Below are positions 9,590 through 30,784 of a DNA stretch of 32,000 nt, piece after piece. A program made the translations under genes and the position numbers. Each line of letters starts with the position of its first letter. Position 1 is the first letter of the stretch. The DNA comes from Candidatus Velamenicoccus archaeovorus (GTDB taxonomy: Bacteria > Omnitrophota > Gorgyraeia > Velamenicoccales > Velamenicoccaceae): positions 1,290,001 through 1,322,000 of the forward strand of contig NZ_CP019384.1 of assembly GCF_004102945.1 (NCBI RefSeq), read 5' to 3'. Below the pieces are notes generated by a model that saw only the letters and a program-made list of their open reading frames with translations, was not told the DNA's origin and did not search any database.

Positions 9590-9701
9590 GTTTGAAAGAG
9601 TTCCGGAACAAAATCAAGGAAGGCCTCAGGACAGATGCGCCGAGAACATGTTCATAAGAAAACCCTTCGGCAACCTCAAAATAGATCCAGGTAAGCCTCA
9701 G

Positions 9702-9830
9702 AGTCAACCCATATTCCCCGGCCTCGGCCTGCCCTTCGGGCAAGGCCAGGGCCGGAGCTTGTTTCGGGTTACTCTAAGCGGCCACAACATTCTTGCGCCC
9801 TAAAGGGCGGAGCTTTAGGCCGCGCAGAGT
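9702..9830. repeat. structured intergenic repeat, copy A (129 nt)
   Basis: It aligns by eye with 22460-22573 in the same orientation. There are about nine differences outside one replaced hairpin. Conserved stems are CTCT..GCGGCC/GGCCGC..AGAG and GCCC-TAAA-GGGC. Confidence 0.75.
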
Positions 9831-12224: not shown

Positions 12225-12260
12225 ATTGTTTTAGCCTGCCGCAGGCCGGGCGGAGGTATT

Positions 12261-16356: not shown

Positions 16357-16389
16357 GCATTAAATTTTTGCAGAGCAAAAATTTAATGC
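16357..16389 (-). terminator. perfect 15-bp AT-rich hairpin abutting the duplicated tRNA-Phe 3' end (probable original tRNA terminator)
   Basis: GCATTAAATTTTTGC (16357-16371), loop AGA, GCAAAAATTTAATGC (16375-16389). The last 3 nt belong to the tRNA 3'-end copy. Confidence 0.55.
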
Positions 16390-16416
16390 CCAGAGAGGGA
16401 ATTGAACCCCCGACGC
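16387..16416 (-). repeat. 30-nt exact duplicate of the tRNA-Phe 3' end (att-like direct repeat / tRNA fragment)
   Basis: TGCCCAGAGAGGGAATTGAACCCCCGACGC at 16387-16416 is identical to 16601-16630. The segment covers the variable loop, T arm, 3' acceptor strand and discriminator. Confidence 0.9.
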
Positions 16417-16600
16417 GTCGCTTGCGCTCCCCATAGGAGACAACCTACGGTTTTCTCCTATGGCGTCCGCCTTAACACTGAAGGCGGACTGTCACCTCTT
16501 TCCCTCAAAAATATGGAATTGAGGGAAGGTTTCCCTCAAACTCCCTTCATGCGTCTATGATTCAAACTCGTCTTGAACCAATACGTCGAGAAAATAAAAG
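16417..16600 (-). mobile_element. 184-nt ORF-free, hairpin-dense insert between tRNA-Phe and its duplicated 3' end (possible remnant or non-autonomous integrative element)
   Basis: It is bounded by the 30-nt direct repeat. Perfect stems lie at 16431-16463 (10 bp) and 16465-16489 (9 bp), and there is a TTCCCTCAA/TTGAGGGAA/TTCCCTCAA triad at 16500-16539. The mobile-element interpretation is inference. Confidence 0.35.
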
Positions 16601-16673
16601 TGCCCAGAGAGGGAATTGAACCCCCGACGCATGGATTTTCAGTCCATCGCTCTACCGACTGAGCTATCTGGGC
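16601..16673 (-). tRNA. tRNA-Phe (anticodon GAA), CCA not encoded
   Basis: GCCCAGATAGCTCAGTCGGTAGAGCGATGGACTGAAAATCCATGCGTCGGGGGTTCAATTCCCTCTCTGGGCA folds as a standard cloverleaf. Stems are acceptor GCCCAGA/TCTGGGC, D GCTC/GAGC and anticodon ATGGA/TCCAT, with anticodon loop CTGAAAA. Confidence 0.95.
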
Positions 16674-16742
16674 GATGATCACAAAAAACAGACTTATATC
16701 AAAATCTATGTCGGTCGGGACCGACTTCCGCCTCGGCCTTGC

Positions 16743-16773
16743 CCTCGGCCTGCCCTTCGGGCAAGGCCAGGGC
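16743..16773. repeat. 31-nt GC hairpin module identical to 9722-9752
   Basis: CCTCGGCCTGCCCTTCGGGCAAGGCCAGGGC is present here and inside repeat copy A. Confidence 0.8.
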
Positions 16774-16791
16774 GGACCAGCCTACGGCTGG

Positions 16792-16804
16792 GAGCTATCT
16801 GGGC
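16792..16804 (-). repeat. 13-nt duplicate of the tRNA-Phe 5' end
   Basis: GAGCTATCTGGGC at 16792-16804 is identical to 16661-16673. That segment is the 5' acceptor strand, U8/A9 and the 5' D-stem strand. It lies 118 nt upstream of the tRNA in tRNA orientation. Confidence 0.6.
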
Positions 16805-22459: not shown

Positions 22460-22573
22460 AGTCAACCCATATTCCCCGGCCCAAAGGCCCAAATGCCGGG
22501 GCTTGTTTCGGGTACCTCTAAGCGGCCACAAAATTCTCAGCCCTAAAGGGCGGAGCCTTAGGCCGCGCAGAGT
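22460..22573. repeat. structured intergenic repeat, copy B (114 nt)
   Basis: It aligns with 9702-9830 in the same orientation. The variable hairpin here is CCCCGGC (22474-22480)/GCCGGGG (22495-22501). The repeat ends 9 nt from the flavoprotein start codon. Confidence 0.75.
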
Positions 22574-23313: not shown

Positions 23314-23342
23314 ATTGTACTGGCAAAGGGCATAGATGTCAA
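23314..23342 (-). promoter_or_regulatory. sigma70-type promoter 8 nt from the pyrE ATG (leaderless or near-leaderless candidate)
   Basis: On the minus strand: TTGACA (23342-23337), a 17-nt spacer, TACAAT (23319-23314), then AAGCGCCT and the ATG (23305). Confidence 0.55.
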
Positions 23343-23380
23343 CTGGCGTTATGCGCCCCCGACACAGAACAAAGGGTTCA

Positions 23381-27638: not shown

Positions 27639-27654
27639 GCGACGGAAAACCTTA

Positions 27655-27850
27655 AGAAATAACCAATAACCCTGCCTGCCGGCAGGCAGGCAAGATACAA
27701 GATCCAAATAAATCCCAATAACCAACGGCCAAATGATCAAACACGGTTTTTATTTTTTACCTAGTTATTGAATTTTTGTTTTTTGGTCATTGTTTGCCTG
27801 CCCTGCGGGCGTAGCCCGCGAAGGCAGGTTTCTTGGGATTTGGTTATTCA
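27655..27850. repeat. about 195-bp composite imperfect palindrome (MITE-like): terminal inverted repeats, two GCCTGCC-stem hairpins, AT-rich centre
   Basis: The left end AGAAATAACCAATAACCCTGCCTGCC (27655-27680) matches the reverse complement of the right end, TGAATAACCAAATCCCAAGAAACCTGCCTT (27850-27821). A perfect 20-nt palindrome CCTGCCTGCCGGCAGGCAGG lies at 27671-27690 and a nested hairpin at 27796-27829. The inner pair is CAAATGATCAAA / TTTTGGTCATTG. Confidence 0.5.
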
Positions 27851-27862
27851 TTCCCGTTAAAT

Positions 27863-29540: not shown

Positions 29541-29608
29541 CGGTGATCTTATTTTTCCATCCACCGCTACCGCGTCAGCGGATGCCTGCCGAAGCAGTGG
29601 CGGCGGAC

Positions 29609-29721
29609 ACTTCGTTGGCAAACGGGGTTAATCCTTCACACCTGCCTGCCCTGGTCAAAGGCAGGCGGCCGGATAACTTACGTCGTTCGTCCTGCGGACA
29701 GACTCCGTAAGTTATGGCCTC
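29609..29721. repeat. direct repeat copy 1 (113 nt = 81-nt unit interrupted by a 34-nt hairpin cassette)
   Basis: 29609-29632 plus 29667-29721 match 29788-29811 plus 29814-29868 with 3 substitutions. Confidence 0.85.
29633..29666. repeat. 34-nt GCCTGCC-stem hairpin cassette inserted in repeat copy 1
   Basis: CCTTCACACCTGCCTGCCCTGGTCAAAGGCAGGC replaces the dinucleotide TC of copy 2. The stem is GCCTGCC (29644-29650)/GGCAGGC (29660-29666). The same stem sequences occur at 27796-27829. Confidence 0.7.
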
Positions 29722-29787
29722 CCTGAAAAATCACCTCTTTCTACCCCGATTCGCCTAAGACGCGTCGTAAATTTCTTTCAGAAATTT

Positions 29788-29868
29788 ACTTCGCTGGCGA
29801 ACGGGGTTAATTCGGCCGGATAACTTACGTCGCTCGTCCTGCGGACAGACTCCGTAAGTTATGGCCTC
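29788..29868. repeat. direct repeat copy 2 (81 nt), ending 1 nt before the thiL stop codon
   Basis: ACTTCGCTGGCGAACGGGGTTAATTCGGCCGGATAACTTACGTCGCTCGTCCTGCGGACAGACTCCGTAAGTTATGGCCTC. The internal stem is ATAACTTACG (29820-29829)/CGTAAGTTAT (29853-29862), extended by GGCC/GGCC. Confidence 0.85.
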
Positions 29869-29869
29869 A

Positions 29870-30784
29870 TTAAAAATGTCTGAATTTCGGCGGCGGCAGT
29901 TTTTTCAAAAGGCCGCCGCGGGTACATATCCGCACCCCTTTAAAAGCAGTCGTCATACGGCCGATGGGATAGAAATGGAACCGGCCGGCTGAATACGCCG
30001 ACAGGCGGCGTGCCTGCGCAGGCGCAAGCGTAAAGAGCAATTCGTAATCCTCGCCATCACCCAGGGCTGCTGCCATCGTCTTGACGCCCGGATTCCTTGG
30101 GATATCATCCTCGAAGATCTCGGCCCCCAGGCGGCTGGCTTCGCACAAACGGGAAAGGTCCATGCCCAAGCCGTCCGAGAGATCCATCATGGCGTTGACC
30201 TTGAAATTTTTCACCAAAAAACGGGCCTCTTTGACCCGGGGAACAAAAAACAGATGGCGGCCGCTTCTCTGGGAACCGCCCAAGGGGCCGGAGACAAAAA
30301 TAGTGTCGCCGTCTTTGGCGCCGCTGCGTAAGACAAGGTTCTTCTTCTTGACCTCCCCCGTCATGAATACGTCGATCACGAGACGGTCGCTGCGGTTTAT
30401 GTCTCCGCCGATGACGCTGACGCCGTATCTGCGGGCGCATTGCCCGAGCCCGGCAAACAAGGCCTGGGCGCGGCGCGCCAGGTCTTTGCGGGGCAAACCC
30501 GCAGAAACGAGGGCGAATCTCGGCTCGCCGCCCATAGCGGCGATGTCGCTTACTGAGACGGCGACGGCCTTATAGCCGACCCTTCTCAGATCTTCCCCTT
30601 TCTTAAAATGCACAGATTCCACGAGCATGTCAACCGTCAGGAGACCGTAGAGCTCTTTCGGCCCCCGGATGACAGCCGCGTCATCGCCCGGCCCGACAAC
30701 GACTGAAGGGTCGGCTGTCCTGAACCGGCGGACGGCTTGAGCGACAAGGGCCCATTCTTTAATGTTTTTGAGATAGGCGTCCAT
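29870..30784 (-). CDS. thiL: thiamine-monophosphate kinase
   Basis: 304 aa from the AIR-synthase-related family, with GPGDDAAV and VSVSDIAAMGG motifs. Confidence 0.92.
   Translation of the reverse strand: MDAYLKNIKEWALVAQAVRRFRTADPSVVVGPGDDAAVIRGPKELYGLLTVDMLVESVHFKKGEDLRRVGYKAVAVSVSDIAAMGGEPRFALVSAGLPRKDLARRAQALFAGLGQCARRYGVSVIGGDINRSDRLVIDVFMTGEVKKKNLVLRSGAKDGDTIFVSGPLGGSQRSGRHLFFVPRVKEARFLVKNFKVNAMMDLSDGLGMDLSRLCEASRLGAEIFEDDIPRNPGVKTMAAALGDGEDYELLFTLAPAQARRLSAYSAGRFHFYPIGRMTTAFKGVRICTRGGLLKKLPPPKFRHF

Follow-up and report, generated by a model that had tools for sequence, protein, structure and literature searches.

Tiny GC-rich hairpin modules are present or absent as units within intergenic repeats of Candidatus Velamenicoccus archaeovorus and may have spread as single-stranded DNA

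Two neighboring copies of an 81-nt repeat in the genome of Candidatus Velamenicoccus archaeovorus (Omnitrophota) differ by a 34-nt hairpin-bearing block, which raises the question of whether such small hairpins enter and leave other repeats as units and, if so, what might move them. The copies lie in a 32,000-nt stretch of DNA (contig NZ_CP019384.1, positions 1,290,001 to 1,322,000; G000:C1:1290001-1322000 in our labels), called the window throughout, within a closed genome of 1.97 Mb (G000). Positions preceded by the word genome refer to the whole chromosome, and all others are counted from the start of the window. A preliminary description of the window had assigned its hairpin modules to one family with GCCTGCC stems; our analysis resolved two. 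Both families consist of discrete, strongly intergenic modules of 16-70 nt that are precisely present or absent at paralogous as well as orthologous sites, with no duplication of the target, they are unlinked to Y1 transposases or REP-associated tyrosine transposases (RAYTs; REP, repetitive extragenic palindrome), and a 20-nt palindrome of the first family is multicopy in distant phyla. Based on these comparisons, we put at slightly better than even (a probability of roughly 0.55) the explanation that the two families are gained and lost as units in intergenic repeats and spread as single-stranded DNA (ssDNA) hairpins by an enzyme acting in trans.

The difference that raised the question can be read directly in the sequence, as the preliminary description had it. 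The first repeat copy consists of GGGGTTAAT followed by the block CCTTCACACCTGCCTGCCCTGGTCAAAGGCAGGC and GGCCGGATAAC, while the second reads GGGGTTAAT-TC-GGCCGGATAAC. Within the block, an 8-nt leader, CCTTCACA (29633-29640), precedes the hairpin GCCTGCC-CTGGTCAAA-GGCAGGC (29644-29666). The same two-part module, a leader ATCCTTC(G/A)CA with a CCTGCC hairpin, was also found at genome 333147, 893788 and 1212629, giving four occurrences in total, and the window's block is retained in a near-identical strain with one single-nucleotide polymorphism (SNP) in the stem. We refer to hairpins of this type as family 1. They have constant ends, CCTGCC...GGCAGG, around a variable middle, are often built from CCTG units whose number in the arms differs between copies, and often have the stem doubled to CCTGCCTGCC...GGCAGGCAGG. 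The core and minimal form is a perfect 20-nt palindrome, CCTGCCTGCCGGCAGGCAGG, hereafter the 20-mer. The window holds six matches to CCTGCC-N(0-30)-GGCAGG at four sites, compared with 0.10 expected from shuffled sequence. Genome-wide we counted 75 family-1 hairpins, whereas the 29 alternative arrangements of these six letters gave between 1 and 29 stems each in all cases but one, TCCGCC, which belongs to a separate repeat family; the reversed polarity of the CCTGCC stem occurs 14 times. Intergenic sequence makes up 11.5% of the genome by the gene model built in this analysis, although 52 of the 75 hairpins lie there, an approximately six-fold enrichment outside coding sequence. The equal frequency within genes that, according to the preliminary description, would mark a compositional artefact was not seen, and the genic matches, mostly long-looped, look like chance occurrences. 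The 20-mer itself has 21 copies when up to two mismatches are allowed. All but one of these are intergenic, their stem changes are compensatory (e.g. CCTGTCTGCCGGCAGACAGG), and most are solitary, nested in repeats other than tRNA-derived ones and distant from any nuclease gene. The perfect palindrome and the longer hairpin reported earlier near 27796-27829 were both confirmed (Table 1), the latter with a length of 32 nt and further copies at genome 275224, 344004, 1744954 and 1795370. As the preliminary description had noted, every hairpin site in the window is located between called genes. Two shorter sites that it had counted as related versions do not belong, as one folds no better than shuffled sequence and the other, which does no better, is part of a TCCGCC-type repeat.

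The second case in the window concerns a structured repeat of about 130 nt, which is present in about 18 genome copies. Here too the earlier reading was correct in that copies A and B differ at the apex (9724-9750 versus 22482-22494) and that a 31-nt core recurs unchanged at the tRNA-Phe locus. However, this hairpin, GGCCTGCCC-TTCG-GGGCAAGGCC, belongs to a different family, family 2, and not to the CCTGCC(TGCC) palindrome family. Both cases are real hairpin modules, but the claim that they form one family is not supported. The family-2 core, GGCCTGCCCTTCGGGCAAGGCC, occurs 13 times in the genome (12 of 13 intergenic) and is built from GGCCT(T)GCCC units; the only stretch that it has in common with family 1, GCCTGCCC, is shared by chance. 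The tip of the ~130-nt repeat is likewise composed of GGCCT(T)GCCC units, its apex ranges from 4 to about 60 nt, and the family-2 hairpin sits there in either orientation, inverted relative to the host in two copies. At the tRNA-Phe locus, the same hairpin occupies the hairpin slot of a decayed cassette. Specifically, the first 13 nt of tRNA-Phe are copied (16792-16804) and followed by two hairpins, one of them family 2, and then by the next 7 tRNA nucleotides (16720-16726), with the intact tRNA-Phe at 16600-16673. The two families also meet within the 81-nt repeat. This repeat has the consensus TTAATTCGGCCnnATAACTTACG-loop-CGTAAGTTATGGCCTCATTAAAAA, with compensatory changes in the stem and a variable loop that extends from 12 nt up to a three-level nest at genome 478860, where a family-2 hairpin lies within a family-1 hairpin within the host loop. 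No Rfam family matched the host repeats.

Evidence that the modules behave as units came from comparison with the whole genome of a same-genus relative, G002, in which 803 syntenic spacers were paired and 126 indels of at least 12 nt with well-conserved flanks were listed. Five 20-mers of our genome (genome 1089033, 1719165, 1722153, 1744527 and 1795261) are exactly absent from G002, and hairpins of 32, 36 and 68 nt are likewise precisely missing there, among them the copies of the window's 32-nt hairpin at genome 344004 and 1795370. Since two hairpins (16 and 31 nt) are confined to G002 and others to our genome, both lineages have private copies. The site at genome 1719165 has the same junction as the first case in the window, where G002 reads GGGTTAATT^CGGCC, in agreement with the empty second copy. 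Within our genome, an empty paralogue with 84-100% identity across the joined flanks exists for 12 of the 21 palindromes; these paralogues include a tandem duplicate 83 nt away and an intact tRNA-Arg whose partial copy bears the palindrome in the T-loop. Two different tRNA-derived sequences carry an insert at the same T-loop position, GAATC^GAAC. The presence or absence of hairpin units within other repeats, as originally proposed, is therefore borne out by precise indels of 16-68 nt and by hairpin-free paralogous hosts; the modules differ between species, and empty alleles retain no half-site. The accompanying suggestions of a target motif or target-site duplication found no counterpart in this genome. 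No target-site duplication was present at 5 orthologous and 12 paralogous empty sites, and no consensus emerged either here or at 123 cross-phylum sites among the matches listed; GAAC directly 3' of the hairpin occurs seven times in this genome, mainly in one host family. Complementarity between flanks was no better than for permuted flanks (p = 0.62), with hairpin ends imperfectly delimited. We also considered loop targeting and rejected it as a general rule, as 24% of hairpin-type indels fell in predicted loops compared with 25.6% of random positions in the same spacers.

The tRNA-Arg(CCG) locus (G000:C1:1744496-1744940; G002:C1:218300-218390) is ringed by tRNA gene fragments. Here the fragment is a 3' piece with the palindrome in its T-loop, and in G002 it is a 5' piece with a 31-nt CCTGCC hairpin in its D-loop.

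The distribution of the 20-mer beyond this genus was the surprising part of the analysis. Counts in 29 relatives ranged from 0 to 32 copies (0 to 21 within the genus), while the reversed sequence, used as a control, gave 0. A scan of one genome per prokaryote species for the exact 20-mer returned at least 120 stretches, representing at least 120 species genomes of many phyla, compared with about 0.5 expected by chance by our own arithmetic (596 Gb / 4^20). Among the matches listed, these comprised Patescibacteria, Bacteroidota (including cultured isolates), Planctomycetota, Delta- and Gammaproteobacteria, Thermodesulfovibrionales, Chloroflexi and Omnitrophota, with 49 copies in the cultured Longitalea luteola, 83 in a deltaproteobacterial metagenome-assembled genome and 8 in Flagellimonas. 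In the same set of listed matches the flanks are mutually unrelated, 48.5% of sites fall in a frame of at least 100 aa compared with 87.5% of random positions in the same loci, and 17 of 103 sites have an empty copy of the joined flanks within the same 8 kb. Direct repeats of 7 bp flank four of these listed sites exactly (0.03 expected) and eight with one mismatch allowed (0.23 expected), several of them in heptamer tandem arrays; the exact cases L223, L258, L260 and L279 include arrays like the window's CAA-type host. The small dispersed repeats (SDRs) of Nostocaceae are reportedly also linked to short tandem heptamer repeats and nested in other repeats. We did not find the 20-mer sequence in the literature, and the Omnitrophota genome papers are silent on such repeats.

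Among other explanations, the one that survives best is that the hairpins are immobile, the hosts being what moves, and that gene conversion or recombination swaps filled and empty forms between paralogous repeats. Most palindromes do reside in multi-copy hosts that also exist empty. The AT-rich host in the window, together with both of its hairpins, is missing whole from congeners, where the orthologous spacer is 43 nt (G002) or 56 nt (G001), which indicates that hosts can spread pre-filled. Hairpin-free paralogues of the sequence around its 20-nt palindrome are found at genome 984996, 1470360 and 1133047, and paralogous heptamer hosts at genome 1088950 and 1795243 occur in G002 without hairpins. 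Furthermore, three SNPs relative to the near-identical strain cluster at 29600-29700, within about 110 nt of repeat and with none in the flanks; this fits conversion and could be the result of conversion between repeat copies. Against it, the same 20-mer is found in unrelated hosts, namely heptamer arrays, the head of the 81-nt repeat, a CCGCCACT-type hairpin, and T-loops of tRNA-Arg and tRNA-like sequences, as well as in unrelated contexts of many phyla. At least one insertion per host type is needed, and we regard exchange of hosts as an unlikely account of the whole.

If the hairpins themselves move, each module would do so as a folded ssDNA hairpin that is cut and re-joined by a hairpin-specific enzyme supplied in trans, and the best candidate for this enzyme would be a small GIY-YIG nuclease of the Ssn/UPF0213 type with a single domain. 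Ssn proteins, which consist of one GIY-YIG domain and measure about 94 aa, are enzymes that cut ssDNA beside their own hairpin repeat (NTS/SRM), which has hundreds of copies and flanks the gene for the nuclease (Chenal et al., Nat Commun 2025, PMC11893778). We propose this class because, in other genomes, the palindrome lies directly 5' of such genes within the crippled tRNA copy of tRNA-linked cassettes, and because our genome has six or seven such genes (small PF01541 open reading frames, ORFs) as well as the decayed tRNA-Phe cassette in the window. Across 120 cross-phylum loci among the matches listed, the small GIY-YIG family was the sole meaningful recurrent neighbor, and no neighbor was present in more than six loci. 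At L215, L284, L296, L255, L136/L138 and G012:C2:29966, the palindrome is located 0-20 nt 5' of a small GIY-YIG ORF, compared with about 0.4 such adjacencies estimated by chance. At these loci it falls within a tRNA 5' part that is duplicated (D-arm or anticodon loop), and after the gene comes the intact tRNA. Of the palindrome-adjacent nucleases, the two in the class of our genome are mutual best matches with 54% identity, and in the PDB the closest relatives of the nuclease next to the palindrome are UPF0213 proteins. Intact cassettes with the architecture of the tRNA-Phe remnant and a GIY-YIG gene occur in other phyla and elsewhere in our genome, where the complete ones (genome 445858, 1724591 and 1799764) have TCCCGCC...GGCGGGA hairpins instead of CCTGCC. 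The small GIY-YIG nuclease is thus the leading but unproven candidate for the mobilizing enzyme. More tentatively, the 20-mer and its longer relatives may constitute a pan-bacterial minimal non-autonomous mobile DNA, mobilized in trans by Ssn-like GIY-YIG ssDNA nucleases. This would be the GIY-YIG counterpart of REP/RAYT, with insertion that leaves no target duplication into exposed ssDNA, including tRNA-gene arms and repeats, and phylum borders would have been crossed together with tRNA-linked nuclease cassettes.

Two of the nuclease cassettes have further features of their own. A 330-nt GIY-YIG cassette at the 5' end of a tRNA gene (G000:C1:445787-446116) is bounded by duplicated CGGGGAGTAGC and is missing at the syntenic G002 site; its best protein match in G002 reads through a TAG. 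The loci L136 and L138 (G023:C4:180500-184500 and G023:C13:12600-16600) are two copies of a multi-gene segment in G023, which contains a response regulator, a tRNA-Leu cassette with two adjacent palindromes and an 87-aa GIY-YIG gene, and a TIM-barrel gene.

Several results weigh against movement of the hairpins by such an enzyme. Of 32 small GIY-YIG ORFs sampled from our genome and 29 relatives, not one lies within 250 nt of a CCTGCC hairpin. The number of GIY-YIG genes does not correlate with the number of palindromes (G019 has 11 genes and 0 palindromes, G008 has 3 and 22), nor does the occurrence of the closest homologue of the palindrome-adjacent nuclease. We know of no transposition chemistry for GIY-YIG enzymes. 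The presence/absence polymorphism anticipated earlier was seen against G002, but not against a strain of 99-99.9% identity, which has all window hairpins and no hairpin difference over the roughly 18 kb of the window compared. Recent activity is therefore not demonstrated. In addition, the outgroups G001 and G003 do not have the host elements, so gain and loss cannot be polarized. Finally, by inspection the palindrome does not fit the SRM pattern HGTCWY...RNCYNB (PMC11893778).

A more familiar mobilizer would be a RAYT, a transposase of the Y1 HUH type acting in trans on classical REP elements, and the preliminary description had recommended a search for one. Our genome does contain two RAYT-like genes, which score 66.8 and 38.3 bits against NF047646 (both under the cut-off of 80), along with one IS200, and the hairpins resemble REPs in size, in palindromic form and in their bias towards intergenic sequence. 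Yet each of these genes carries other hairpins, in the RAYT-like cases their own repeats (TAATGAGAC-type and GATTGAAGCTCGGCTTCGATC), and none of 18 Y1 loci in G000 and five hairpin-rich relatives (G004, G008, G009, G014 and G023) has a CCTGCC hairpin within 1.5 kb. The palindrome also has no conserved GTAG-like 5' tag and, being perfect, no orientation. RAYT or IS200 mobilization is accordingly unsupported in these six genomes, and we consider it improbable. The RAYT-like genes are L002 (G000:C1:1776674-1777600, 308 aa) and L003 (G000:C1:195011-195652, 213 aa); their own flanking repeats are TAATGAGACTTTAAGG...CTTAAAGTCTCATTA, with about 22-27 genome copies, and GATTGAAGCTCGGCTTCGATC. The IS200-type element, L001 (G000:C1:792570-792932), encodes a 142-aa Y1 transposase between end hairpins CCCCGCCTGTTAAGGCGGGG and lies inside an RND efflux pump gene.

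The hairpins might alternatively be functional signals maintained by selection, such as terminators or RNA 3'-end hairpins, sites for a dimeric protein, or breakers of homology between tRNA duplicates. A stop codon is found within 50 nt of many copies, copies in G023 occupy very short spacers at both ends of tgt, dnaK and similar housekeeping genes, and the compensatory stem changes described above are of the kind that selection would leave. A signal would not account for how an identical 20-mer reaches new sites, however, and the position of copies relative to genes is mixed, genomes of a single genus hold anywhere from 0 to 21 of them, and most have no U-tract; we give this explanation little credence. 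Local hairpin turnover, in which the tips change on the spot by mutation, slippage and expansion without any shared element, is very doubtful as the main process. The apex of the ~130-nt repeat does vary by GGCCT(T)GCCC units of about 12 nt, as does the number of CCTG units in family-1 arms, but the same sequences recur at unrelated sites and in unrelated phyla, a hairpin is inverted at a fixed host site, and the indels are precise with no half-site. As the main process, turnover is already contradicted; it probably contributes length variation in addition to insertion. An artefact of sequencing or assembly, for instance a palindrome resembling an adapter, is suggested by the identity of the 20-mer in assemblies of many phyla with some sites inside open frames, but is extremely unlikely: our genome is closed and only one of its 21 copies is not intergenic, the independent assembly of the near-identical strain has the same hairpins in the same places, isolates carry up to 49 copies, and we know of no adapter sequence matching the 20-mer.

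Returning to hairpins that spread as units through an enzyme in trans, the modules are best filed with the REP/BIME (bacterial interspersed mosaic element) and Ssn-repeat kind; what is new here is that copies occur singly and nested, and that they are gained and lost. The likeness to the Ssn system (NTS/dRS3 of Neisseria) consists of a GC-rich palindrome of ~20-30 nt with tens to hundreds of intergenic copies, and a gene for a GIY-YIG protein of ~90 aa flanked by its own repeat (PMC11893778). For the palindrome, the latter feature was found in G012, in G023 and at five loci of other phyla, in each case only 5' of the gene. The TCCCGCC...GGCGGGA hairpins of our genome's tRNA-linked GIY-YIG cassettes also resemble the NTS core, TTCCCGCG...CGCGGGAA (PMC11893778). 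Unlike NTS, the CCTGCC palindrome has no oriented flanks CGTCA and ATCYRG (PMC11893778), and no GIY-YIG gene adjoins it in our genome. Moreover, the linked nucleases elsewhere lie within tRNA-gene duplications, whereas the text of the Ssn paper does not contain the term tRNA (PMC11893778). Its authors liken the Ssn system to IS200/IS605 and REP/BIME (PMC11893778). REP/BIME elements with RAYTs in E. coli and Pseudomonas are similarly short multicopy intergenic palindromes arranged in mosaics without target-site duplication (PMC3116915), and their proposed mechanism involves a single-strand hairpin (Nunvar 2010; Ton-Hoang 2012; both as cited in PMC11893778). The nested arrangement here is a mosaic like BIMEs, with hairpins in 81-nt and ~130-nt repeats, in heptamer hosts and in other hairpins, reaching three levels at genome 478860, but the modules lie within other repeats and not side by side. 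In contrast to REP, our genome has no cognate RAYT, the palindrome is perfect, and the same sequence extends across distant phyla. There is also no GTAG-type 5' tag: among the matches listed, no base exceeds 41% at eight flanking positions of 123 sites, and flanks in our genome are diverse. The SDRs of Nostocaceae (Elhai et al. 2008, Genome Res 18:1484), as described in passages of PMC5861425, PMC2884548 and PMC3116915, are comparable in being roughly 20 nt, proposed to be mobile and of no known transposase; they differ in being reported in those passages from Nostocaceae only and in having unrelated sequences.

If the modules move, they would be among the smallest mobile DNAs known (16-36 nt), and their enzyme would be a new kind of DNA-rearranging nuclease, which would be of practical interest since Ssn enzymes are already under development as ssDNA tools. 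If they are only REP-like passengers, they represent a well-documented new family of a familiar kind. Shared without change by Omnitrophota, Patescibacteria, Bacteroidota, Planctomycetota and Proteobacteria, the 20-mer would also serve as a simple marker of exchange between phyla. For annotation, the modules account for swollen intergenic spacers in this lineage, e.g. that between tsaE and thiL, and for assembly breaks at such spacers.

Table 1. Positions of hairpin modules, their host repeats and two excluded sites in the window
Feature	Position	Strand	Description
Repeat A	9702..9830	+	AGTCAACCCATATTCCCCGGCC-apex-GGCCGGGGCTTGTTTCGGG...TAGGCCGCGCAGAGT; apex 9724-9750 is the family-2 hairpin (27 nt)
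Non-member site	12234..12246	.	fold no better than shuffled, z = -0.18
Decayed tRNA-Phe cassette	16674..16804	-	partial tRNA duplicate and two hairpins, no nuclease gene remaining
Family-2 hairpin	16743..16773	.	31 nt identical to 9722-9752
Repeat B, same family as A	22460..22573	+	apex CAAAGGCCCAAAT only (22482-22494, 13 unrelated bases)
AT-rich host element	27639..27862	.	degenerate CAA-type heptamers; long imperfect inverted repeat; one family-1 hairpin per arm
20-nt perfect palindrome CCTGCCTGCCGGCAGGCAGG	27671..27690	.	fold z = -3.4; identical in independent strain assembly
32-nt family-1 hairpin CCTGCC-CTGCGGGC-GTA-GCCCGCGAA-GGCAGG	27797..27828	.	-14.6 kcal/mol, z = -4.3
Non-member site	29583..29597	.	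z = -0.21; in repeat of CCGCCACT...TTCGGC...AGTGGCGG type, TCCGCC-type stem
Host repeat copy 1	29609..29729	+	head ending ...AACGGGGTTAAT, inserted block, hairpin GGCC-GGATAACTTACG...CGTAAGTTAT-GGCC
34-nt block CCTTCACACCTGCCTGCCCTGGTCAAAGGCAGGC	29633..29666	.	leader and family-1 hairpin; DNA fold -8.0 kcal/mol
Host repeat copy 2, without block	29788..29876	+	GGGGTTAAT-TC-GGCC

The spacer between tsaE and thiL that contains the two 81-nt repeat copies (29541-29869) measures 329 nt in our genome but 2-3 nt in three congeneric genomes, in which tsaE and thiL abut. The terminal TTA of the second copy (29870-29872) is the stop codon of the convergent thiL, whose TAA falls inside the conserved repeat end, CTCATTAAAAA. 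Across 341 nt of another spacer and across the flanking genes, zero SNPs separate our genome from the near-identical strain. Repeat A (9699-9824) is missing as a whole at the syntenic G002 site, with a 6-nt junction overlap, CAGAGT, between element start and flank. A similar overlap, GTCAA, was seen at another copy of the ~130-nt repeat (genome 1656174), and the two overlaps may reflect target duplication or microhomology.

Additional differences between strains were noted around tRNA-Phe. A 37-nt copy of the tRNA-Phe 3' end (92% identical) is located at 16387-16423, 214 nt from the gene, and beyond tRNA-Phe a 99% identical strain (L018:14574-17899) has an island of small genes (HTH_17, MerR). 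This region looks like an integrative element in one strain that was lost from the other, leaving an att-like scar. The near-identical strain also has an extra 151 nt at 16795-16803 (L018:13823-13973), situated between direct repeats CTATCTGGG that are a piece of the duplicated tRNA-Phe 5' end. Lastly, the segment at 23328-23380 is 53 nt here, whereas two other strains (L018 and L019) have 945 nt with a DUF2335 gene at this position.

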